The notes: generated by a model from the sequence alone, not told the origin. 64,000 nt of DNA from Actinomycetes bacterium (GCA_021802485.1 JAJZXF010000003.1:1636-65635); one strand, 5' to 3'; counted from the first letter of the stretch, positions 32,395 through 44,410 are shown. Made by a program: numbers and translations.

Positions 32395-34215
32395 CTAGAG
32401 CAGTTCGCCAACGCGCTTCGCGATCTCATCGTGGACTTCCACCTCCTGCTCGCGAGAAACTCGCACAATCACAACCGCTAGGCCGCGCCGCTCGTGAGCT
32501 GCAACTAGCTCATGGACAAGCTCGGCTGCACTCGACACCTCAATCACTGCTGCGCAAAAGGCTCTCGCGACATCGCCGACGTCGACGGCCGCCGGGGTAG
32601 CGAAGAACCTCTCGAAATCGTCATGTTCCAGCACCTTCGCCTGGGGTAGGAAAGAGAAAATCCCACCACCCGCATTGTCCACGATCACGAGCGTGGCCGC
32701 TATTCTCTCTGTGTCGACGCTCGCAAGCGCTGAGCAGTCATGAAGAAAAGCCAGGTCCCCGAGGAGCGCAACCACCGGGCGGTTCCCGCTGGATGACGCG
32801 CTCACACCAAGAGCGGTAGAGACCACGCCGTCTATGCCGTTGACTCCCCTGTTCGACAAGATTCTCGGTGGATCAGCGACCGGAGGCCCGAACCACTCGA
32901 CGTTGCGGATCGCCATGGACGATGACACAACGAGGTCGCACCCACCATCCATGGCTCGCACAAGGCGGCGAGCCACCGCGGGACCGCAAAGCTCGCCGCG
33001 TTCCACCAGGACCTGGTCCATCACGTCCTGAGCCACATCGTCCGCGTCCTTCCAGCCCGCCAGCCAGCTGTTTCCACCTGCTGTGCTCAGGCTGGAGTCA
33101 CTCCCGCAGGCACCCGCACCCATGCCCCTGCGAGTAGCTTCCCCGGCGACCGCTCTGCAAAAAGATCCAGGGTCGGCCCTTACGGCCCGGGTCGCAACCC
33201 TAGCTGGGTCAGCCCATCGCCACCACGGATCCACCAGGTACTGCTCCACCTGCCTGGATGCGAGATCGGCTATCCAGTCGTTCACGACCCTCGACGCCCA
33301 AGGTGCTCCAATACACACGATCACCTCCGGCTCATGCGAGTCGGCAAAGACCCTCACACGCAACAGAGCATCTGCAGCCGCGATCACGTTACGCGACGCA
33401 GTACGTGCACCTGACCGGGGATCCGCGAGCAGTGGCCATCCAAGAGCGTCGGCCATTGCAACGAGGTCGCCTGGGTCGCCAGCCCCAGAGCCAGCGATGA
33501 TCACCCCCCGCCTACCTGCAATTTCAGGGCGCAGTCCTGAGGGGGCTCGCTGCGAAGCAGGATTCGGAGCCAGCAGTTGTTCGATCACGTCAGCGCTAGG
33601 CGGCGTCGGGGAAGATGATGCAGCATGCCACGGCGCTCCCCCGCTGCGCCCCGAAGGTATGCTTGAGGGTTCGGACACGAGTGGGTCGCGAAACGCTAGG
33701 TTCAGATGGACCGGACCGGGTCCAAACGGGCCCACTGTCGCTTCCATGGCTGAGCGTGCTGCAAGCGACCTCCAGGCGCGGCTCACGCCCACGTCTGCGA
33801 CACCCGGCTCAGCGCTCCAGCGCACGGCCGCGCCGAAGAGCCCGGTCTGCTCGATCGTCTGGGGGGCGCCGACACCATGCAGTTCGGGCGGCCGGTCCGC
33901 GGTGCACACGATCAGGGGAACCCCTGAGTGGTGGGCTTCGAGCACGCTCGGGTGGAGCTCCGCAGCTGCGGTCCCGCTGGTGGTCAAGACGACTACTGGT
34001 CGAGCGCTCTCGAGGCCAATGCCAAGTGCAAAGAAGCCAGCTGAGCGCTCGTCAAGGCGCACGTGGGTAGTGATCGCGTCGTGATGTGCTAGTGCAAGCA
34101 CGAGAGGCGTCGATCGAGAACCGGGCGAGATCACTGCATCGCGGACACCAGCCCTTGCCCATTCATCCACAACGGCTGCTGCAAACGCTGCCTGTACACT
34201 CGTCTGTCGTGTCAT
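32395..34215 (-). CDS. menD: 2-succinyl-5-enolpyruvyl-6-hydroxy-3-cyclohexene-1-carboxylate synthase
   Basis: 606-aa ORF. N-terminus AAVVDEWARAGVRDAVISPGSRSTPL, ThDP motif LLGDLAFLHD, and men gene context. Confidence 0.9.
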   Translation of the reverse strand: MTRQTSVQAAFAAAVVDEWARAGVRDAVISPGSRSTPLVLALAHHDAITTHVRLDERSAGFFALGIGLESARPVVVLTTSGTAAAELHPSVLEAHHSGVPLIVCTADRPPELHGVGAPQTIEQTGLFGAAVRWSAEPGVADVGVSRAWRSLAARSAMEATVGPFGPGPVHLNLAFRDPLVSEPSSIPSGRSGGAPWHAASSSPTPPSADVIEQLLAPNPASQRAPSGLRPEIAGRRGVIIAGSGAGDPGDLVAMADALGWPLLADPRSGARTASRNVIAAADALLRVRVFADSHEPEVIVCIGAPWASRVVNDWIADLASRQVEQYLVDPWWRWADPARVATRAVRADPGSFCRAVAGEATRRGMGAGACGSDSSLSTAGGNSWLAGWKDADDVAQDVMDQVLVERGELCGPAVARRLVRAMDGGCDLVVSSSMAIRNVEWFGPPVADPPRILSNRGVNGIDGVVSTALGVSASSSGNRPVVALLGDLAFLHDCSALASVDTERIAATLVIVDNAGGGIFSFLPQAKVLEHDDFERFFATPAAVDVGDVARAFCAAVIEVSSAAELVHELVAAHERRGLAVVIVRVSREQEVEVHDEIAKRVGELL

Positions 34216-34268
34216 CTCTCGTCGTATCTCAACACGGAATCGGCTGCCAAGCTGACCCCGGTGGAAGG

Positions 34269-35078
34269 TTGCATGCCACGACCCTAGGGCACGGATCCCG
34301 GCTGGTGCTCGTCCATGGCTTCACCCAGACCGGCCGATCCTGGGACCAGGTTGCGAGTAAGCTCAGCTCACAGCATGAGATCGTCCTCGTCGACCTGCCA
34401 GGCCACGGCGGCTCCTCCGCGGTACGAGCCGATCTCGTCACCGGCGCGGCTCTGATAGCACAAGCGGGCGGGAAGGCCGCGTATGCAGGGTACTCGCTCG
34501 GAGGGCGCCACTGCCTGCACCTTGCACTTTTGTACCCGGACCTCGTCGAACGCCTCGTCTTGATATCCGCGTCGCCGGGAATCGCCGAAAACGCCGAACG
34601 AGCGGCACGCAGGGCAACCGATGACGCTCTGGCCGCCAGCCTCGATGTCGGCGATTTGCAGGAAGGCGCTCGATGCCAGCGAGAAACCAGCAACGTGGAG
34701 CACGGTAGATGCCCGAAGCTCGAAGCTTTCCTTCGCACCTGGCTCGATCAGCCATTGTTCTCCAAGCTCGACCACACAACCTCCGGCTTCGAAACCCGCC
34801 TCGCGGAGAATTCATGTGCCGGCCTAGCGTCAAGCCTCAGGCTCGCGGGAGCCGGCGTCCAGGAGTCACTCTGGAAGCGCCTCGGGGAGCTGGACATGCC
34901 GGTACTGGCCATTGCTGGCAGCGAGGATCGCAAGTACGCCAGCATAGCGAGGCGCATGGTTCGCGAGATCGGTACCAACGCTCAGGTCGCGATCGTCGAA
35001 CGAGCAGGCCACGCAGCCCATCTCGAGAGGCCCGATGCCCTCGCCTCGATCTTGGATTCGTTCATGAACAACCGGTGA
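34269..35078 (+). CDS. menH: Alpha/beta hydrolase, probable SHCHC synthase
   Basis: Inside ORF 34086..35078, whose 5-prime part is antisense to menD. The TTG at 34269 is preceded by GGTGGAAGG. Motifs: LVLVHGFTQTGRSW and the nucleophile elbow GYSLGG. The function call rests on the divergent menD context. Confidence 0.65.
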   Translation: MHATTLGHGSRLVLVHGFTQTGRSWDQVASKLSSQHEIVLVDLPGHGGSSAVRADLVTGAALIAQAGGKAAYAGYSLGGRHCLHLALLYPDLVERLVLISASPGIAENAERAARRATDDALAASLDVGDLQEGARCQRETSNVEHGRCPKLEAFLRTWLDQPLFSKLDHTTSGFETRLAENSCAGLASSLRLAGAGVQESLWKRLGELDMPVLAIAGSEDRKYASIARRMVREIGTNAQVAIVERAGHAAHLERPDALASILDSFMNNR

Positions 35079-36148
35079 GCGCTTGTCCGCCTGGCCTCTT
35101 AACTTGGGATTACGGCTCCGACCAGTCTTCAGGCCGCCCTCTTGAACGCAGGATAGCGGGTTCGCAGTGGCCTTCTGGTCCCTTTCGGTCGTCCGGGATC
35201 GGGTGTGATGGTTGCTTGGTGGGAGGGCCGGCGTGCCAAGTGCTGCACGCAGTTGCCGAAACCCCCGCCCGGCCCGGTGACCAGCGGCGGCTCCGAACTC
35301 TCCGATCTGCGCTCAGCCGCGGCGGTCGAGTGCCACTCACCCTGCCGCACGACAATCGGAAATCTGCCCAGCGCCGACTGACGCCAATGTGTCCAGGACA
35401 CCGGACATGGTGATCAAGTTCATGTGATGCCAGAGGCGTCCTTGGCCGAATAGTGCAGCACGGGATTCGTCCCGGATAGGTGATCTCCGCATCAGTGAGC
35501 TTCTCACAAAGAGCTGTCACGATTATCCATCTGATCGGACTAATCACAGCATGTCGGGGTTGATGACCTGGCAGTGTCGCAACATCTCGCGGCCGAGGTG
35601 CCCATTGTCCGGTCGGATGGATAACCGAAAGAGCTGCAATCGCCTGAGTGCGCCGAGGTGCGGAGAGTGGGTCGATGCAGATGTGGAGCGCACTACCGGT
35701 CATCTCAACCACGCGTGTTCCCCAAAGAAGCGCGCACGCTTCGCACCGCAGTTGTCACGGGCGCGGCTCGGTCGCCAATCAGTCCATTGTGCTGCTGGTG
35801 CTGGGTCAGTTGAGTTGATTCCCATACATTTCGTTGATCGCATCTGAAATCGAAAGCCCTGGGCCTTCTGGAGATTTAACCCTGTTCAGGGCCGAATGTC
35901 AGCGGCGAGCCAGGCTGCTATGTCAGGTGTCCTGGAGTCACAGAACGTGCGACCTATCGGCGAGGCAGAATCAAGTTCAGAAGGCCGAATCCCGGCTACG
36001 TTGTGGTGCCCCATGACGCCTTCACAGGAAGCGGAGCAGAGGTGCGGATCACCGAATCGGTGCGCCGAGCCTTTTCCGCACGGCCGCGGACCCGACCGCC
36101 TACAGATTGTCTAGTCCTGCGTGGTCGAAGCGGCAGATGAACCATTGT

Positions 36149-36427
36149 TCAGCGAGGCCGGTAGACGGCAGACCGATGCTGGATGTCGAGGACGATCACA
36201 ACGCGCTTGTCCTCGTTGATCTCGTACAGGATGCGCCACTCACGTCCAAGCCGGGCGCTGTAGATGCCGGTCAGCGTGTCATGAAGTGCTTTGCCCACCC
36301 TGCGCGGGTTGTCGAGGAGTGGCCCGGTGACGAACTCAGACGCCGCTACCGCAACGTCAGGGGGCAACCGATTGGCCAACGCACGACGAGCCGGTGGCGC
36401 GGTTCCCAGCTCGTAGCGTTGGCTCAC
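36149..36427 (-). CDS. Type II toxin, RelE/ParE family
   Basis: 92-aa ORF. The GTG start overlaps the antitoxin stop (GTGA). C-terminus WRILYEINEDKRVVIVLDIQHRSAVYR is typical of RelE/ParE. Confidence 0.85.
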   Translation of the reverse strand: MSQRYELGTAPPARRALANRLPPDVAVAASEFVTGPLLDNPRRVGKALHDTLTGIYSARLGREWRILYEINEDKRVVIVLDIQHRSAVYRPR

Positions 36428-36681
36428 GAAGCCTGGCGTCCTCGCACCAGGCTTCGTACAGCGTCCGCCCCGTAGACGATGTCGCCGTCGGCGGCCGCCT
36501 GACGGGCTTCGGCCAAGGATCGCAGCGCCTCGGGGTCGGCCACCACATCGGCGGTCTCGCGCAGCGCCAGGAACGTCTCGATGGCCAGTACCACGGTCTG
36601 ATGGACGCTGCGGCGGTCCTCCTCAGCAGCGGCACGCAGCTCGGCGTCGAGGTCCGGGTCGAGACGCAGGGTCATAGCCAT
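36424..36681 (-). CDS. Type II antitoxin with ribbon-helix-helix N-terminus
   Basis: Start ATG at 36681 (MAMTLRLDPDLDAELRAAAEEDRRSVHQTVVLAIETFL is an RHH pattern). The C-terminal part DPEALRSLAEARQAAADGDIVYGADAVRSL resembles RelB-type toxin-binding tails. Confidence 0.8.
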   Translation of the reverse strand: MAMTLRLDPDLDAELRAAAEEDRRSVHQTVVLAIETFLALRETADVVADPEALRSLAEARQAAADGDIVYGADAVRSLVRGRQAS

Positions 36682-36691
36682 ACCGTTATGA

Positions 36692-36714
36692 TACCATTTG
36701 ATACTTATATGGTA
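36692..36714 (-). promoter_or_regulatory. Candidate operator/promoter of the RelE-type TA pair
   Basis: Inverted repeat TACCAT-N11-ATGGTA in an AT-rich patch immediately upstream of the antitoxin ATG. TATCAT lies 6 nt before the ATG on the minus strand, compatible with a leaderless transcript. Confidence 0.35.
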
Positions 36715-37050
36715 CAGGCGCAGCGTTGCCGCCAACCGTTCCCGCTACTTTGGGGCTGGGGTCACGTTCCGTGGCACTGGGCTGACACCGCATCATTAGT
36801 TTGCAAGCTTGGTAGCCGCCAAAGCGTATCAATCTCGTCGCGAGGACTCGTGTCATACGTACGGCCACCACCAACGGGAGCACCAAACCGGGGGTTCCCT
36901 TCGAAAGGGCGCCACGGAGACATACAGCGTCAAGGCGGTCCGAGCCGCCGCTATCGCTCCGGTTCTCCCGAGCGGACTACCCGCTTTCCCGTGACCCCGT
37001 GCTTTCCTCCGTGGGGATTGGCGCTCAGGAACCGAGAAGGAAGACCCCTG

Positions 37051-37632
37051 TCATTGCGGCTGTGCATTCGCCGCATGAAAGGCATGGCGCTGCGACTTGA
37101 TCCAACCTTCTAACTCTGGTCCGCCAGTGACGAGGCGAACTTCAAGAACACACGTGATTCGTTGAAACATCGTGTTCACGTCGAAACCGACATCCACCTG
37201 TGGCTTTATCGCGAGATGGCGTAGTTCCCAGGATCGGGCAGACACACTCTCGGCTTGAATCAACAACCACCCCGGATTCATGGCGGGGAACACGAGTACG
37301 GCCAGGACGCCGGTCTGCCCCGGATTCAAAATGCCATCCAAGTCGCGTTGCGTGAGAACAATCCTTGATTTATCCGTCGTTTTGACTTCCACGGAAATGG
37401 TATGGCTCTCACCGTCTATCCTCGGAGACGTAGCAGTGAAGTCCGGGACGCCGATTGCATTCTCGATGACGTGGAAGCCCGCTGCTTCAAAACTGCATGC
37501 GAGCACTTGCTGCATCACTCGCCCAAATTCTTGTGGACTCAACATCTTGTAGAGCGAATCCAACTGGTAGATCGTTCGGTTGATCCGACTCCGATCCTCC
37601 TGTGGCTCATCCATCTTCGGCAACGACCGCAC
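37051..37632 (-). CDS. Mrr-like PD-(D/E)xK nuclease-fold protein
   Basis: 193-aa ORF. An alternative ATG at 37614 gives an ATGGATGA overlap with the ATPase stop. Pattern: SPQEFGRVMQQVLACSFEAAGFHV ... GVPDF ... ISVEVKT ... TGVLAVLVF. That is D ... E-x-K in the order and spacing of restriction-endonuclease-fold enzymes. Confidence 0.65.
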   Translation of the reverse strand: MRSLPKMDEPQEDRSRINRTIYQLDSLYKMLSPQEFGRVMQQVLACSFEAAGFHVIENAIGVPDFTATSPRIDGESHTISVEVKTTDKSRIVLTQRDLDGILNPGQTGVLAVLVFPAMNPGWLLIQAESVSARSWELRHLAIKPQVDVGFDVNTMFQRITCVLEVRLVTGGPELEGWIKSQRHAFHAANAQPQ

Positions 37633-39805
37633 ACCCAGCCGACGGGGACCACGACAGACATTTGCGGTCGAGTGACTCCTCCGCCGTTGCGCTGCCGATT
37701 AGTTCATCGAGCTCCGAATCCTGCGTGCCGACAAGGACTTGGAGCTGTGGCGCTAGCCGAGAAAGGATTCCTACGAGTGCCTGCTTGTGCTCGGTATCAA
37801 GATTCTGACTGGGATCATCGAGTATCACAAAGCCAATGTTGTGCTGGAGTTGCGTTGCAAGAGCCAGGTATACGCTCAGCGCAACGCAGTTCATTTGGGC
37901 CGTGGACAAGCGTGAACTCGCAAGCGTCTGACGATTGTCGGTGGATGCGTGCGTGCGGATGAAGTAGTTATTTCGCTCGATTCCTGAAAGGCGCTGGCTT
38001 TCTACAGAGATTTCGATGTCATCGAAATAAGGGTGGTTGCATAGCTCCTTGTACAGCCTTGCGATATCCACCTGCGCGTTCTCTACGGCATCCCCTGCTC
38101 TCGTGCTTGCTTCTGCGGTGACGATATCAGCAATCGTTCTGATGCCATTTTCCAATCTGCTCAGTGACTCGATCTGTTGCTCTGCAACCGAGGAGTCCTC
38201 GTCGCCCTTTCCGAGACGTGATGAAGCCTCCTGATAGTTGGCGTCAAGTTCAAGAAATCGCGCAATCTCCCGGAGCCGTCCCATCAGCGATTGGATTGCT
38301 TCGATCTCCTCTTCTCGCTTGCTCCGCTCCGTATCCACAGTGGAAGCCTGCTGAAAGAGCTTTTCCTTTTGCCTGTCAAGCGCATCGATCAGGTGGTCGT
38401 CGGCTACGTTAGTCGTCAACAACGCACGGGCTTCCGTGCGAGCGTTCGTCATTTCCTCGCCGTATTGCTGGCGTTCCTTGAGCAAACGGCCTCGCTTCGT
38501 GATCGCAGCATCCAGGTCACCGATCCGTCGCTGTTGCTCCATCTCTGACTTATGAGCGGCTGCTATCTCCGTACGAAGGTCGCCACTGAGATGCCCTTCT
38601 AGCCGAGCGATCAACGCATCCCTTTCGATCTCCTGTCCACAGGCCGGGCAGTTGCTCTCACCAACTGATGCTTGAAGGTACGTCAAGGTGTCTTGAACGA
38701 TCCGCTCAGAGATGCCGAGCTTTTCCTGAGCTTCCCGGAACTGCTGGACCGCCGCTTCGGCAGTCGCCTTCTGCTCGTCAAGCGTGTCGAGGTTACCGAA
38801 CCCTTGCTGTAGCTCCGCCACGCTCTTGTCAACGCCATCGAGAAGCGCAGCGACTCTGCGGAGCGTCGTGCGTGCTCCGTCCACGGCGGCAGTCTGCTTT
38901 GACGTGTTGGCTGCGATGGCAGCATTCGTCGCCGTCTGTCGGATGACTTTGATTGCCTCAGTGACTCGACGGTTGAAGCTATCGACCCCATCGGCATCGT
39001 CGGGTTCGGACTGATCTTTGATCGGGGCGACGATCGACGCCGCAAGCGTTTCGAGACAGTCGATCACCTGACGTGCGAGTTGTGCAACGGCGGAAAACGT
39101 GAGGTCTGCTTCTGACAGCCCCTTCTTCTTGGCGTCATCCAAGGCACGTTGCCGATGTGCTTCGACCTGTTCGACGGCACCAGTCAATCGATCGACAGCG
39201 GTTCTCTTGCTCTTCTCCAGCTTGTCGAGAGCGTCACGAACGGGCTTCGCGGAACCGGACAGCGCCTTGAGCATGTCTCGCAGCTTCTCGACCCCGAAAA
39301 GTCGGTCCAGCGCCTCGTTGCAAACCCGCGGATCTTCAGTCAGGAGTCCACGGATGCTTTCTTGATGCAGATACACCGCACGGGCACGGTAAAAGTCGTC
39401 AAAGGTCAACCCGAGCAAACGAAACAGGGCAGCGTTGGCTTCGGTCCCGACGTACTCTTCGCCGTTCGGGAGCTGTACGGTGGCCCCCGCAGCTCGCTTT
39501 CCCGCCTTCTTGGATCGCGTGATTGATGCAATGCCGTCGTCGCTCTCGAGGTCAATCCTGACAGTGGCCGACTGCGCTCTGTGGCGGATGTTGACAAGCT
39601 CGTCATTGGTTGTGTTCTCTTTGGGTTGGTATTGCAACTCACCAAAGAGTGCCCATTCAATCGCACCCAGGATGGAAGTCTTGCCCGATCCATTTGGTGC
39701 GGAGAGCACGGTTGTTTGCCGGTAGAAGTCGATCTCAATCGGGTCACAGATACCCCGGAATCCTTCTGCTTTCAGCCTGACGTGTCGGAGCTTCTGTGCG
39801 CTCAT
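37607..39805 (-). CDS. Rad50/SMC-like ABC ATPase with central CxxC (zinc-hook-like)
   Basis: 732-aa ORF. Walker A: SAPNGSGKTS (aa 35-44, nt 39674-39703). Q-loop-like: YLHQES. A charged helical region spans about aa 170-590. CPAC lies at aa 386-389 (nt 38639-38650), the midpoint of the protein. Signature-like LSTAQMNCVAL, Walker B FVILDDP, D-loop SQNLD. Confidence 0.85.
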   Translation of the reverse strand: MSAQKLRHVRLKAEGFRGICDPIEIDFYRQTTVLSAPNGSGKTSILGAIEWALFGELQYQPKENTTNDELVNIRHRAQSATVRIDLESDDGIASITRSKKAGKRAAGATVQLPNGEEYVGTEANAALFRLLGLTFDDFYRARAVYLHQESIRGLLTEDPRVCNEALDRLFGVEKLRDMLKALSGSAKPVRDALDKLEKSKRTAVDRLTGAVEQVEAHRQRALDDAKKKGLSEADLTFSAVAQLARQVIDCLETLAASIVAPIKDQSEPDDADGVDSFNRRVTEAIKVIRQTATNAAIAANTSKQTAAVDGARTTLRRVAALLDGVDKSVAELQQGFGNLDTLDEQKATAEAAVQQFREAQEKLGISERIVQDTLTYLQASVGESNCPACGQEIERDALIARLEGHLSGDLRTEIAAAHKSEMEQQRRIGDLDAAITKRGRLLKERQQYGEEMTNARTEARALLTTNVADDHLIDALDRQKEKLFQQASTVDTERSKREEEIEAIQSLMGRLREIARFLELDANYQEASSRLGKGDEDSSVAEQQIESLSRLENGIRTIADIVTAEASTRAGDAVENAQVDIARLYKELCNHPYFDDIEISVESQRLSGIERNNYFIRTHASTDNRQTLASSRLSTAQMNCVALSVYLALATQLQHNIGFVILDDPSQNLDTEHKQALVGILSRLAPQLQVLVGTQDSELDELIGSATAEESLDRKCLSWSPSAGCAVVAEDG

Positions 39806-39888
39806 CGTGTCGTCGTTCTCTTGCGAGCAGCGGCCTTCTTTGCAGGTACCTTTTTCTTCGGGGCAGCGCTTTTCGTAACCGACCGGAC

Positions 39889-40086
39889 CTATCTCAGGTC
39901 TTTCTCCACAGCGAGCCTCGATTGCCGCACTCGTTCCACAATTACGCCCTTGACAGCACTCGGGCCGCCATCGTCGAACGCCGCCCGGATGTCGGCCCAG
40001 AGGATGCGAGTGTCCCCGTCCGGCAATGCCTTGCTGATCTTGGCGTCAACGTCATCGAAGATCGAGCCAGCGGACAGCTCAGACAT
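39889..40086 (-). CDS. Small hypothetical protein, first gene of the ATPase-nuclease operon (ends at an in-frame TAG)
   Basis: 65 codons from the ATG at 40086 (MSELSAGSIFDDVDAKISKALPDGDTRILWADIRAAFDD...). The TAG at 39889-39891 is followed in frame by 28 sense codons (VRSVTKSAAPKKKVPAKKAAARKRTTTR). These end in a TGA that overlaps the ATPase ATG (ATGA, 39802-39805). Confidence 0.45.
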   Translation of the reverse strand: MSELSAGSIFDDVDAKISKALPDGDTRILWADIRAAFDDGGPSAVKGVIVERVRQSRLAVEKDLR

Positions 40087-40150
40087 CGGAAGAGCACCCA
40101 GCTCGGTGATCCCGAAGCGCAGCGAACGTCCAGGTTGACATAGGGTAATA

Positions 40151-40179
40151 ATATTACACGGGTGTTCCGACACCGGCAA
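40151..40179 (-). promoter_or_regulatory. Sigma-70-like promoter TTGCCG-17-TAATAT with overlapping palindrome
   Basis: Minus strand: TTGCCG (40179-40174), a 17-nt spacer, then TAATAT (40156-40151). The -10 lies inside the perfect palindrome GTAATA-A-TATTAC (40145-40157). This AT-rich patch is about 60 nt upstream of the small ORF. Confidence 0.5.
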
Positions 40180-40196
40180 CGGTGCTACGCTCCGGC

Positions 40197-40707
40197 TCAC
40201 GGCCGGGGAAGCGCTGTCAAGCCGTACGAGCCACTGCCGACCACCACCACCACCACGTGATCGACCACAACGAGCCCGTATCGGCTGCACGCAGCAGCGA
40301 GGGGGCGGGAGGGTGCGATCCTCCGGTTCCGTAGCGTTCGGAGTGCCCCAGCGGCGGGAGCGGACAGAGACGAAGCCGGTGGCCCGGCGCGCCTGGGATC
40401 CATGGAGGATCGGGCGTGTCGAGGGGCGAGGTGCTTGGACCCAGCCGGCAGCGACGATGGCCGTGCCGACCAGGCGATGCCGATCGTCCAGGTAGGGCGT
40501 CGGCGTGATGTCCTCACAGCGATGGCGGCGCAGGTCTCCGGCGAGCTGCGCAGCCGCTGCAGGGCCGTCGATCCTACGAGGAAGGTCCAGCTTTGCGTCG
40601 GCCACAGCGTCCCGGTGGCAAACGACCCGTCGTCGGCGGGCAAGCGTCCGGATGAGGTGAAAGGTTGTCGGGACCATCGTGGTGCCCTCCAGTGAGAGTG
40701 GATTCAT
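40197..40707 (-). pseudogene. RadC/JAB-like protein gene, frameshifted
   Basis: N-terminal part is in the frame of ORF 39889..40755 (YLDDRHRLVGTAIVAAGWVQAPRPSTRPILHGSQARRATGFVSVRSRRWGTPNATEPEDRTL). The C-terminal part is in the frame of ORF 40197..40643 (PLAAACSRYGLVVVDHVVV...GSGSYGLTA). The switch falls near the C/G runs at 40295-40315. The JAMM HxH position reads RSRRWG. Confidence 0.5.
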
Positions 40708-40929
40708 GGAGGTGACCCACTGGCCACGGACAAAGCGGAGCGCCCGAAGGGGCACTCGGGCGCCTGAGCACGTCTTAAGGCCGCAGCCCTCACGGACGGG
40801 GTGCTACGTGTTCAGGAGTGAAGCCGCTTTGATCTGTTTGGGCGGCTACGAGGCCGGCGTGCCTCGCACCACGCAGGTGTTGACCGTTGCCGGGATAGGG
40901 CGCTACACTGTGTACACAAAGGAGACACA

Positions 40930-41187
40930 ATGGCCAAGGTGAAGAGTATCGGCGTCCGTGAGTTCCGCAACAACGCCAGCACGTACCTCTCCGGCTCGGA
41001 GACGATCGCCGTCAACCGGCACGGCAAGGTGATCGGGTTCTACATCCCGCTCGAACGGGACGAGGACGAGGTCCGGCGTGCTGTGGCCCAACTCGGCGCT
41101 GCTGTCGGCCAGGTTCTGGAAGAGACCGGTATGACCGAAGAGGAGCTGGCACGGGCGTTCGACCTACGACGGCCCATGCCTAAATGA
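40930..41187 (+). CDS. Type II antitoxin (Phd/YefM-like N-terminus)
   Basis: 85-aa ORF with AAGGAGA upstream. Sequence: IGVREFRNNASTYLSGSETIAVNRHGKVIGFYIP. Has an ATGA overlap with the downstream PIN gene. Confidence 0.85.
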   Translation: MAKVKSIGVREFRNNASTYLSGSETIAVNRHGKVIGFYIPLERDEDEVRRAVAQLGAAVGQVLEETGMTEEELARAFDLRRPMPK

Positions 41188-41618
41188 TCATCGTTGCAGA
41201 CGCCAGCGTCCTCGTTGGCGAGTTACTTCGTGACCGTGGGCGCAACCTCATCCTGCACCCGCAGGTGCAGCTCGTGGTCGCCGAGCACCAATGGAGCGAG
41301 GTCGAGCATGAACTGGAGCGGCGTCTGTCCATCATGGAGTCCAGGGGCCGTATCTCCGCTGAGCGACGTAGCGTCCTCGAAGGGGCAGTTCAACACCTCG
41401 TCGATGTCCAGGGCATCGAACTCATCCCTCGAACGGCCTATGAGCAGTTTGAGGAGGCAGCTCGGCGTCGGGTTCCACGAGACCCCAACGACTGGGCACC
41501 GGTGGCCCTCGCCATGGCCCTCGACGCTGGCATCCTGACCGGGGACAACGACTTCCTCGGCTGCGGCTGTCCGACCTGGACGGTCGAGACGCTTCGAGCG
41601 GAGCTGGGGAAGTCATGA
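41184..41618 (+). CDS. PIN-domain toxin (VapC-like)
   Basis: 144-aa ORF with N-terminal MIIVADASVL (first acidic residue) and C-terminal PNDWAPVALAMALDAGILTGDNDF. Confidence 0.85.
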   Translation: MIIVADASVLVGELLRDRGRNLILHPQVQLVVAEHQWSEVEHELERRLSIMESRGRISAERRSVLEGAVQHLVDVQGIELIPRTAYEQFEEAARRRVPRDPNDWAPVALAMALDAGILTGDNDFLGCGCPTWTVETLRAELGKS

Positions 41619-42209
41619 GCGATGGACGTATAGACCCGGACACCGCCGACTTGCTGTCTGCACGTTATCCCATGACCGCCCCGAAGGCAGATTCCGGGGC
41701 TCGAAAAAAATGCCCCGCAGATGAGCCCGAAGGTCGGGTCCATCCCATGAACGCTCTGGCGATCGGGCCGCGCGTCACTCTTGGCCAGAAGCCGTCGGGA
41801 GTACATTAGCCCAGTTCAAATGGCAAATCAGGGCCACACGGGACCACTGTGGATAACCCGCCAGATGAGCCCTCAATTTCCACCCCGCGGGGACGTGGGG
41901 CCAAGCGGGAGCCGAGCCTCTATCTCCTGGGCGAAGGCCATGGAAAGGGCCAAGAACTTGGATGCGCAGCACTCAAGAACCCGCTGGCGCACAGAGGGTG
42001 GAACGTGCCTACAGCTCGCTGCGGAACAGGAGAGATGCGTGTCGAGGACACCTAACATAGCAGCCGGGTCCACCGCTGACATTCGGCCCTGCAAAGGGTT
42101 GAATCCCCTGCAAGCGCTGGGCTTTCGACTTCAGACGTGATCAACGAAAATCCCATCCGTGCACGGCACGAGGACTTTCTGTCAGCTGAGGTGGAGGGGG
42201 AAATAACCT

Positions 42210-42450
42210 GTGGCGTTCCTTTTCTCCTACATCGCGTCCGTCCGGATGCTCCAGCTCTTTGGCCAGCTACGCAAGAAGAACACGGATCTCGTGATCGAGA
42301 TCCTCATGCTCCGCCACAAGCTTTGTGCGCTGCAGCGCCAAGTACCGCGCCCGTGACTTCGGGCATCGGACATGTGTAGTTGGGAAGCCCAACAAACTCC
42401 CTCGCAGGAAGCTTGTAATCGAAACTCCGGTCCGCCAATGACGGTAGTAG
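42210..42450 (+). mobile_element. Decayed N-terminal fragment of an integrase-core (IS481/IS3-like) transposase
   Basis: Reading from 42210: VAFLFSYIASVRMLQLFGQLRKKNTDLVIEILMLRHKLCALQRQVPRP, then a stop at 42354. This matches the characteristic D[VL]EIL.LRH[QK]L..L.RQ..RP N-terminus of actinobacterial rve transposases. A shifted frame continues with KLPRRKLVIETPVRQ. No catalytic domain follows. Confidence 0.5.
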
Positions 42451-42588
42451 CCCACCTCTTGGTGTTCAGCGAAGTCCGGCGTAACAGAGGCCCGATGCGG
42501 GGCCGCGCCTCAAGCCCTCACGGGCTGAAGGCCGCAAAGATCTTATCTTGGAAGAACCGACAGTTCGGCCTTCCGGGGCCGAGAGAAG

Positions 42589-43458
42589 TCACACGGCAAT
42601 CCCGACGGCAAGCAACACCGCAAAAACCAGCGCAAGTACTCCCCCCCCGCCTAGGACCCCCACGAGATCGAGCCCCGATACGCCCCGTAGGACCTTCAGG
42701 ACGAGCGACACCGCAAGAGGCAGAGCAATCAACGCCACTGCTGCCCACGGCCTCACCCATGCCACCGGGCCAACGAGCGCAAATGGTGCAAGCACCACGA
42801 AAGCGTAAGAAACCCTCGTCGCCCGCGGCCCCATCCTGACCGCAAGCGTCTTCTTGCCAGCAAGCGCGTCCCCTTCGATGTCGCGCAGGTTGTTCGCCAC
42901 CAGCAGCCCAACTGCCAACAGCCCAACAGGGACCGCGGCGGCTACTGCGAGAGCCGTCAGCTTAAGCGTCTGCACGTAAGCGGTGCCGATCACCGCCACC
43001 AGCCCGAAGAAAACGAACACGAACACCTCTCCCCAGCCTGCGTACCCGTACGGGCGCGGGCCGCCAGTGTAGAGCCACCCCGCGGCGATACACGCTGCCC
43101 CAAGCACAATGAGTTGAGGGCCCACCGCAGCCGCAAGAGCGAGGCCTGCAATCCCTGCGACCGCGAAGCTCACGCCAGCGGCTGCAAGCACTGCCTTGGG
43201 CCGGGCAGCACCGGAAGCCACAAGACGCTGGGGGCCAACGCGCTCAGCATCCGCTCCGCGGACCCCGTCAGAATAGTCATTTGCGTAGTTCGTCGCTACC
43301 TGCAGAGCCCCGGCAACCACGAGGCAAGCGCCCGCCCGCCACCAGATCACCCCGCCCGAGACGCTAGCGACCGCGGTCCCGACGAGCACAGGCGACACCG
43401 CTGCAGGCAGCGTACGCGGCCTAGCCCCCCGGACCCACGCTCCAAACCCTGCGCCCAC
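42589..43458 (-). CDS. menA: 1,4-dihydroxy-2-naphthoate polyprenyltransferase
   Basis: ORF 42589..43527. Preferred GTG at 43458, downstream of the menB stop. UbiA-family motif NYANDYSDGVRGAD, multiple TM segments, men context. Confidence 0.85.
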   Translation of the reverse strand: MGAGFGAWVRGARPRTLPAAVSPVLVGTAVASVSGGVIWWRAGACLVVAGALQVATNYANDYSDGVRGADAERVGPQRLVASGAARPKAVLAAAGVSFAVAGIAGLALAAAVGPQLIVLGAACIAAGWLYTGGPRPYGYAGWGEVFVFVFFGLVAVIGTAYVQTLKLTALAVAAAVPVGLLAVGLLVANNLRDIEGDALAGKKTLAVRMGPRATRVSYAFVVLAPFALVGPVAWVRPWAAVALIALPLAVSLVLKVLRGVSGLDLVGVLGGGGVLALVFAVLLAVGIAV

Positions 43459-43471
43459 CGGCGAACTCCGA

Positions 43472-44410
43472 CTACGGGCGCCGCGGAAAACGGCCAAACT
43501 CAGGCTGGCGGCGCTCAAGAAAGGCATTCCGGCCCTCCTGGCCCTCCTCTGTCATGTAGAACAGCATCGTTGCGTCGCCTGCGAGTTGTTGTATTCCTGC
43601 CAGCCCGTCATCTGCGGCATTAAATGCTCCCTTCAGCATCCGGAGCGCGATCGGCGACATCGCTAGCATCTCCCGGCACCACCCGACGGTCTCTTCCTCC
43701 AGGCGCTCCAGGGGAACAACGGTGTTCACAAGACCCATCTCCAGAGCCTGCACCGCGCCGTACTGGCGGCATAGGAACCAGATCTCCTTCGCCCGTTTCA
43801 ACCCGATCGTGCGCGCCAGCAGCCCAGCTCCGTACCCGCCGTCGAAGCTACCGACCTTGGGCCCGGTCTGGCCGAAAATCGCGTTCTCCGCGGCTATCGT
43901 GATGTCACACACGAGATGAAGTACGTGGCCGCCACCGATCGCGTACCCGGCCACCATCGCAACCACGGGCTTTGGGAGGCGGCGGATCTGTACCTGGAGA
44001 TCCAGCACGTTCAGCCGCCCCACCCCCCTGCGGGCCAAGTCATCATCGCCAAGGTAACCGTCGCTCCCCCTGATCCGCTGGTCTCCCCCCGAGCAGAACG
44101 CTTGGGGTCCTTCGCCGGTGAGCACGATTACGCCGACCTCCGGATCATCTCTAGCGATGTCGAACGCTTTCGAAAGCTCCGACAGCGTCTGTGGTCTGAA
44201 GGCGTTGCGCACCTCGGGACGGCATATCGTGATCTTCGCTATTCCACCAGGTTCCTCGGGCCCGCGAAGCACTTCGAAGCGGATGTCCTCATAGGTTGCC
44301 TGCGGGCAATAGTCTTTCCACACGATTTCGGGACTGCTCACGTACTGCAGGCTATCGTCGCGGGCAACATTGGCCAAGAAATGCTGCAAGAGGGCCTGCA
44401 TCGTCGACAT
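43472..44410 (-). CDS. menB: 1,4-dihydroxy-2-naphthoyl-CoA synthase
   Basis: ORF 43472..44542, start ATG at 44410 (MSTMQALL). Crotonase fold with [11 protein letters not shown] and FDGGYGAG, typical of MenB. Confidence 0.95.

Follow-up and report, generated by a model that had tools for sequence, protein, structure and literature searches.

An accessory islet between menH and menA in an actinomycete metagenome-assembled genome carries a compact ATPase-nuclease cassette

In a metagenome-assembled genome (MAG) of an Actinomycetes bacterium (GCA_021802485.1), the convergent genes menH and menA are separated by a tail-to-tail intergenic region of 7,510 nt (positions 35079-42588), which raises the question of what this block is and how it came to lie between them. 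The window analysed here is the whole 64,000-nt stretch JAJZXF010000003.1:1636-65635 (contig C56, 1636-65635), and positions are counted from its first letter. The source genome comprises 2.86 Mb in 152 contigs (GC 0.608, completeness 97%), and its genes have their named relatives in Acidimicrobiales MAGs. A preliminary description, made from the sequence alone, had proposed an accessory island of ~7.5 kb flanked by menD/menH on one side and menA/menB/menE on the other. The flanks are as it described: menH ends at 35078, the menA stop codon occupies 42589-42591, menA is followed by menB and menE, and the profile matches of menD and menA exceeded their cut-offs, while that of menH was slightly under its own (180 bits versus 208). 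The island was likewise confirmed, the block being a real accessory insertion between menH and menA.

The evidence for insertion came from the state of the junction in relatives. menA was drawn from 30 relatives, and 14 order-level neighbourhoods were retrieved in which the men genes were located. Eight of the 14 genomes, each belonging to a different family of the order, had menB/menA, menH and menD side by side, with a menA-menH stop-to-stop gap of 9-38 nt versus 7,510 nt here; in one more, menD followed menA directly, and in the other five (G001, G011, G012, G023 and G028) menA and menH were non-adjacent within the retrieved sequence. A metagenome set gave 80 contigs encoding MenA relatives (the best of them 65% identical); 53 had enough flank, and menA and menH were adjacent in 12 of these. 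In five metagenome contigs menH was reached only after 1.1-3.2 kb of other genes downstream of menA (S13 peptidase and MMPL transporter genes among them). Since the two genes abut across families, abutting is the ancestral state. Thus the synteny comparison proposed in the preliminary description favoured insertion, and the finding that it had named as speaking against an island, the same block conserved across relatives with native composition, was not obtained.

In the sole same-genus genome (G001), the order sdr-menE-menB-menA is as in the window, and beyond menA lie a 1,011-amino-acid (aa) STAND-TPR-BTAD protein and then a beta-helix protein; the menH-menD pair starts another contig, preceded by a ribbon-helix-helix (RHH)/PIN relic and a repeat protein. 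No island gene of the window was found in G001. The menH-menA junction of this lineage is thus, judged from gene order, a variable site, and the convergent junction tolerates foreign DNA in Acidimicrobiales. Beyond menH, the G001 contig end (L027, C99:1-1750) encodes an RHH-type open reading frame (ORF), a PIN C-terminal relic and a large GYWFVASDGGIFSFG-type repeat protein; contig C113 of the source genome (G000) encodes a repeat protein similar to the latter.

A second line of evidence is that the cargo recurs elsewhere. The central 4.8 kb of the region matched an ENA contig (L045, 1821-6648) in one colinear blastn alignment (84.3% identity over 4,858 nt), in which the order and orientation were as in the window: a PIN gene, its upstream partner, a 159-aa RadC-family gene, and genes for a 94-aa protein, a 730-aa ATPase and a 186-aa nuclease. 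Beyond the block this contig encodes an M78 peptidase and a tyrosine integrase, and no men genes. Moreover the nuclease was present in one of 300 other genomes of the order (G064, of another family), which shares exactly the three-gene operon (window 37059-40086, 3.03 kb) at 88.5% nucleotide identity. MenA is only ~50-65% identical at the amino-acid level between families, versus 84-88% nucleotide identity for the cargo. When 185,579 species genomes were scanned for a single conserved peptide pattern, the module turned up in nine named genomes; the labels of carriers were Acidimicrobiales/Acidimicrobiaceae (six), Actinomycetota (one, apparently the G064 contig), "actinobacterium" (one), Acidobacteriota (one MAG) and Chloroflexi (one MAG). 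No men genes lay within 7 kb of the module in the nine named genomes, and none beside it in the metagenome contigs read. In all contexts examined the three module genes stood together in the same order, and their neighbours elsewhere included DNA methylases, AbiEi/AbiEii, a WYL regulator with an SLFN-like helicase, a ResIII helicase, an integrase and transposases. Such recurrence of cargo at other loci, with identity far above that of core genes, is the mark of an island. From the shared extents, the 3-kb cassette is the smallest mobile unit and the 4.8-kb block, in which a toxin-antitoxin (TA) pair and the RadC-like gene travel together with the cassette, a larger one.

The 4.8-kb block was seen in three near-identical metagenome contigs (L045, L046 and L047; ENA ERZ272372xx), which differ downstream by having an intact integrase, an integrase cut by an insertion sequence (IS; rve), or IS3-type orfA/orfB; the PIN gene is broken in one of the three. 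Therefore the parent element is decaying in its other hosts too.

The 7.5 kb is very probably a horizontally acquired mosaic accessory islet, put together by several insertions at the tail-to-tail junction and now decaying. According to this explanation, the insertions would have built up at a site with no promoter to disrupt, around a core formed by the portable 4.8-kb block. Elsewhere this block neighbours a tyrosine integrase, which suggests arrival on an integrative element: the likeliest route would have been integration or recombination of a larger integrative element, after which its mobility genes would have disappeared, and a miniature inverted-repeat transposable element (MITE), an IS and a group II intron would have inserted and become truncated. 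The two TA pairs (ParE/RelE-RHH and Phd-like/PIN) may stabilise the islet or abort infection. The decay read by the preliminary description was borne out by a frameshift in the RadC-like gene, an amber stop in the small gene and the truncated IS and intron pieces. Overall the islet is an ordinary, partly broken accessory island, of which the compact Lamassu-like cassette, damaged here, is the sole part with some novelty. The features are collected in Table 1.

Table 1. Features of the menH-menA region and its flanks (window positions).
Feature	Position	Strand	Basis
menD	32395-34215	-	TIGR00173, 405 bits, above cut-off
menH, 2-succinyl-6-hydroxy-2,4-cyclohexadiene-1-carboxylate synthase-like alpha/beta hydrolase; left core flank	34086-35078	+	Abhydrolase_6/1; best model TIGR03695, 5.6e-53
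Unique non-coding spacer, menH stop to MITE	35079-35391		No other genome copy; no Rfam match
MITE, deletion derivative of a Transposase_29-family IS	35392-35936 (545 bp)		17-nt terminal inverted repeats TCCAGGACACCGGACAT
Hairpin-like mini-insertion, 111 bp, nested in MITE	35517-35627		Copy alignment and inverted repeat
ParE/RelE-superfamily toxin, 92 aa	36149-36427	-	PF05016, 1e-6; TIGR02385 RelE_StbE, 1.1e-3, below cut-off
Putative RHH-type antitoxin	36424-36735	-	ORF geometry; 4-nt overlap with toxin start
Shared block: nuclease, ATPase, small gene, RadC-like, Phd-like, PIN	36924-41747		blastn to ENA contig L045
Hjc-like PD-(D/E)xK nuclease (predicted), 193 aa (187 aa from database start)	37051-37632	-	Motif, AlphaFold2, Foldseek
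Rad50/SbcC-superfamily ATPase, LmuB-like, 732 aa	37607-39805	-	AAA_23, SMC_N; PADLOC LmuB PDLC03859
Small gene, first in operon	39802-40086	-	TAG at 39889-39891; ATGA overlap with ATPase start
RadC-like (JAB-domain family) pseudogene	40196-40680	-	+1 frameshift near 40313
Putative Phd/YefM-like antitoxin, 85 aa	40930-41187	+	ORF geometry; 4-nt overlap with PIN start; 92.6% nucleotide identity to L045
PIN-domain toxin, 144 aa	41184-41618	+	PF10130 PIN_2, 9.1e-27, full-length domain
Group II intron fragment (internal, domains I-IV)	41873-42040		77-79% identical to C152 and C39 segments
Truncated end of an IS from the family that gave rise to the MITE; orientation opposite to the MITE	42042-42149		108-nt inverted repeat, 83%; terminal inverted repeat at 42042 abuts intron fragment
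Possible transposase N-terminus relic	42195-42371	+	Weak tblastx similarity (1.6e-6, 2e-5) to the N-terminal part of C109 and C135 ORF fragments
125-nt dispersed repeat, four genome copies	42464-42592		Conserved end on menA stop codon; other copies L053 2096-2221, L054 2086-2211, L055 2380-2505 (-)
menA, 1,4-dihydroxy-2-naphthoate polyprenyltransferase; right core flank	42589-43527	-	UbiA; NF004751, 347 bits, 7e-104, above cut-off

Several observations weigh against a mosaic, horizontally acquired origin or leave its details loose: i) an empty site in a near-identical genome was looked for and not seen, MenA of the closest relatives being 64-76% identical, so that the insertion boundaries are approximate; ii) within 35079-42588 there was no integrase or intact transposase, and no att site or target-site duplication, so that the route of entry is one that we infer; iii) the longest repeat shared by the two edges was 8 nt (shuffle mean 8.2), and the edge comparison suggested by the preliminary description thus returned only 8-mers at chance level; iv) the island has a GC of 0.602 (genome mean 0.608), which places it in the 30th percentile among windows of 7.5 kb, and the GC at third codon positions (GC3) of the TA and RadC-like genes is at or above the genome median, and therefore composition alone would not flag the island; v) the genome is a 152-contig MAG, and the lesions and the contig are read from the assembly alone. 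The argument from AT-rich composition in the preliminary description held for the three-gene module only (37051-40086), the GC of which (0.566) is in the 1st percentile of 3-kb windows, with GC3 of the nuclease and ATPase genes in the 9th and 15th percentiles. A tRNA-linked integration site was excluded, as no tRNA is present in the window; the Rfam search over 30-50 kb at E<=1 gave no match.

The repeats around the cargo invite another explanation, in which the MITE (35392-35936) and the inverted IS end (42042-42149) bounded a composite transposon and mobilised the 6.1 kb between them. Their 108-nt, 83% inverted repeat does bracket 35937-42041, and the repeat family was active enough to reach at least ten copies. 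We nevertheless hold such a transposon to be improbable, because the right IS copy keeps its cargo-facing end only, with no outer end and no target duplication; because neither the block in L045 nor the module in G064 and eight other genomes is flanked by the repeat; and because the left element shares the internal deletion of the other MITE copies and therefore inserted ready-made, as a MITE. Moreover the right IS end cuts the group II intron fragment, suggesting an independent nested insertion. The same repeats (MITE and IS end), lying near both cargo ends in a MAG of 152 contigs, could also have promoted a chimeric join that placed a foreign segment between menH and menA. Against such an artefact, the island shares with other parts of the genome no exact match longer than 51-60 nt, this match being confined to the 5' end of the MITE, the bracketing repeats are only 83% alike, both junctions would need to be wrong at once, and the exact nuclease sequence is recorded on eight contigs in the protein collection. 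Chimerism of the contig is thus unlikely, and we assign it a very small probability.

Conversely, the region might be native and vertically inherited, its genes having been lost from other lineages. An overall GC of 0.602 and a GC3 of the TA and RadC-like genes within the genome range would fit this, as would the separation of menA and menH in the five relatives named above. However, adjacency is spread over eight families of the order, the same-genus genome lacks every island gene, the 84-88% nucleotide identity to other families and loci is far above that of core genes, and the nuclease was found in only one of 300 other order genomes. A native origin is therefore already contradicted, and we give it hardly any credence. 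Horizontal acquisition at a variable junction thus stands as the best explanation, and it resembles known islets of defence and TA genes at core-gene hotspots in several respects: variable cargo between the same core genes, with other cargo in the same-genus genome; clustered TA pairs, a defence-like module and mobile debris; and a patchy spread with high identity across distant hosts. The islet differs from them in having kept neither an integrase nor a tRNA or att site, in occupying a tail-to-tail junction within a biosynthetic gene cluster, and in that some other lineages hold ordinary genes at the junction (the S13 peptidase and MMPL transporter).

What does the conserved cassette encode? 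The operon of nuclease, ATPase and small gene proposed in the preliminary description was confirmed at 37051-40086. The 193-aa protein is a predicted PD-(D/E)xK nuclease: its motif GVPDF...E-V-K-T, including D64 (in the P63-D-F motif), E82 and K84 (193-aa ORF numbering), was invariant in 28 aligned homologues, and its AlphaFold2 model (mean predicted local distance difference test score, pLDDT, 92.3) gave archaeal Hjc resolvases as the best Foldseek matches (probability 1.0, template-modelling score ~0.65). No family in Pfam, NCBIfam or PADLOC was found for it. The ATPase matched the LmuB profile PDLC03859 at 1e-39, with its residues 23-703 on positions 17-592 of 611, and has a single CPAC at residue 386, a signature LSTAQ at 633 and a Walker B FVILDD at 659. 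It scores as well against Rad50-like families generally (arcadin-4, 3.7e-42); its best solved relatives were Rad50 heads (1.8e-10), the NCBIfam Rad50-like matches were sub-threshold, and no solved LmuB was detected by sequence from the window ATPase. In all relatives the small gene lies before the ATPase gene and overlaps it; in six relatives it is intact and encodes at least 94 aa. AlphaFold2 modelled the intact protein as three helices in a bundle plus a disordered Lys/Arg tail (pLDDT 68).

In long LmuB proteins a single CxxC is combined with an hhhhDD Walker B, and LmuC precedes LmuB (Haudiquet et al. 2025, PMC12663957). Several traits of the cassette recall this long-type Lamassu (LmuA-LmuC-LmuB): i) the near full-length match to the LmuB model, with a single CxxC zinc hook and an hhhhDD Walker B; ii) a small gene directly before and overlapping the ATPase gene, as LmuC stands before LmuB; iii) a PD-(D/E)xK nuclease partner, Lamassu having Mrr-type effectors; and iv) defence-rich contexts. 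On the other hand, the cassette differs from Lamassu in the nuclease, which is only 193 aa long, lies downstream of the ATPase and gave no LmuA profile match in PADLOC at E<=0.01, either for the window protein or for its 28 homologues; in the 94-aa small protein, which matched no LmuC model or solved structure in profile and fold searches; and in the ATPase, which at 732 aa falls between the "short" (~600) and "long" (~800) classes. Compared with Rad50-Mre11/SbcCD, the cassette likewise has an ABC ATPase with zinc hook and coiled coil, encoded in the same operon as a nuclease; however, the nuclease has an Hjc-like PD-(D/E)xK fold rather than an Mre11/SbcD phosphoesterase, the coiled coil is much shorter, and the module is mobile, rare and found in defence and mobile-element contexts rather than at a conserved housekeeping locus.

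Tentatively, and with somewhat more doubt than trust, we propose that the module is an undescribed, minimal and re-ordered relative of Lamassu, a 3-kb cassette circulating among Acidimicrobiales and other phyla with menH-menA as one landing site; the literature search yielded no earlier account of this ATPase-nuclease cassette. A Lamassu-like action is suggested by the ATPase, its nuclease partner and the genomic contexts: by analogy, an ATPase dimer would sense an invader by its DNA ends or replication intermediates and would then license the nuclease. The cassette so delimited is compact and rare, and intact versions are available in G064, L045 and six other MAGs.

In the window the first gene of the operon carries a TAG (39889-39891) that leaves 65 codons, at a position where six relatives (G064, L045, L048/L049, L050 and L035) have Gln. 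The 28 in-frame codons past the TAG, encoding the Lys/Arg-rich tail, have stayed conserved up to the ATGA overlap in which they end, pointing to a recent nonsense mutation. This mutation removes the basic tail and probably the translational coupling with the ATPase. Because of this premature amber stop, the module in this genome, as read from the MAG assembly, is probably crippled and its copy non-functional, while the ATPase, the nuclease and both toxins with their partners are intact here.

The frameshifted RadC/JAB-like gene of the preliminary description was also upheld. One extra base at ~40313, relative to the 84%-identical L045 copy (intact, 159 aa), breaks the frame, and the two halves of the window gene align in two different frames with intact homologues that match PF04002. 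Homologues in G008 and G109 match PF04002 (1e-9 and 2e-8), while the window copy has no PF04002 match; with intact homologues of this family on one side and the frameshift on the other, the window gene is a pseudogene of that family. In the RadC-like proteins of this clade (L040 291-1163, L042 1393-1911 and the window), VRYRRY or a similar string occupies the expected position of the JAB metal-binding motif, and these proteins may be catalytically inactive. The G109 gene adjoins an ISL3 transposase.

Both TA pairs had been named beforehand, and in each the toxin was supported by a Pfam domain and the partner by its placement. As in type II TA systems of the ParE/RelE-RHH and Phd/VapB-PIN kinds, each pair has two genes with the antitoxin first and a 4-nt overlap, and the toxins carry PF05016 and PF10130; unlike in those systems, the antitoxins here are placed by position and sequence pattern only. 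Neither the RHH-looking ORF nor the Phd-like ORF had a match in Pfam or NCBIfam: the RHH label derives from sequence pattern, and the Phd-like partner was assigned by position. The matches of the first toxin are too weak to tell a ParE-like (gyrase) from a RelE-like (mRNA) action.

On the left side, where the true start of menH is probably near 34260, the 1.07 kb without a credible ORF reported earlier is real, and most of it is explained by the MITE. The element is short and non-coding, with terminal inverted repeats, many copies, no clear target-site duplication and a relation to an IS: its minus strand retains the last codons of a transposase, and a longer fragment on contig C30 matches Transposase_29 (PF21804). 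At least ten full copies, each of ~425 bp and with 82-94% identity, are present in the genome (G000), among them C80:9515-9938, C140:16427-16849, C29:3101-3523, C64:36929-37354 and C78:5763-6184, as well as C99:41921-42368, C69:385-806, C42:11038-11455 and C90:26505-26923. No full-length parent IS was found in the assembly. The longest Transposase_29-type IS fragment (L011, C30:1-4825) is interrupted by an IS21-type element with istA/istB-like ORFs of 423 and 305 aa. The mini-insertion nested in the window copy has imperfect terminal inverted repeats and lies between two copies of a 9-bp direct repeat, AAAGAGCTG (35508-35516 and 35628-35636); it is missing from all other MITE copies, and no second copy was found in the genome.

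On the right side, the 0.6 kb that had been left unassigned holds the group II intron fragment, the IS-end fragment and the dispersed repeat. The intron fragment itself has no Rfam match; the C152 and C39 segments similar to it adjoin Rfam RF02003 (group-II-D1D4-4) matches, and C152 in addition has RF00029 (domain V). The C152 copy (L051, C152:30076-30815) spans ~740 nt from a GUGCG 5' end to domain V, and therefore has no room for a reverse-transcriptase ORF; in the C39 copy (L052, C39:20100-20460) the segment shared with the window stands before, not after, the D1-D4 motif. For the relic near menA, the earlier label of an integrase-core transposase (42210-42450) was not sustained: Transposase_29 and rve scans, and Pfam searches with the similar fragments, gave no family support, and no Pfam match was found for the relic ORF or the C109 and C135 fragments.

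The 125-nt dispersed repeat has a conserved GC hairpin GGCCCCGGAAGGCC and a longer imperfect stem, with a consensus fold showing little covariation among the four copies, and no Rfam match. The idea that this repeat always trails a stop codon was rejected, as only the window copy follows an ORF; its overlap with the menA stop is therefore a positional coincidence. Several MITE matches lie near contig ends, and thus the MITE family probably adds to the fragmentation of the MAG, which the group II intron fragments and the small dispersed repeat likewise help to explain.

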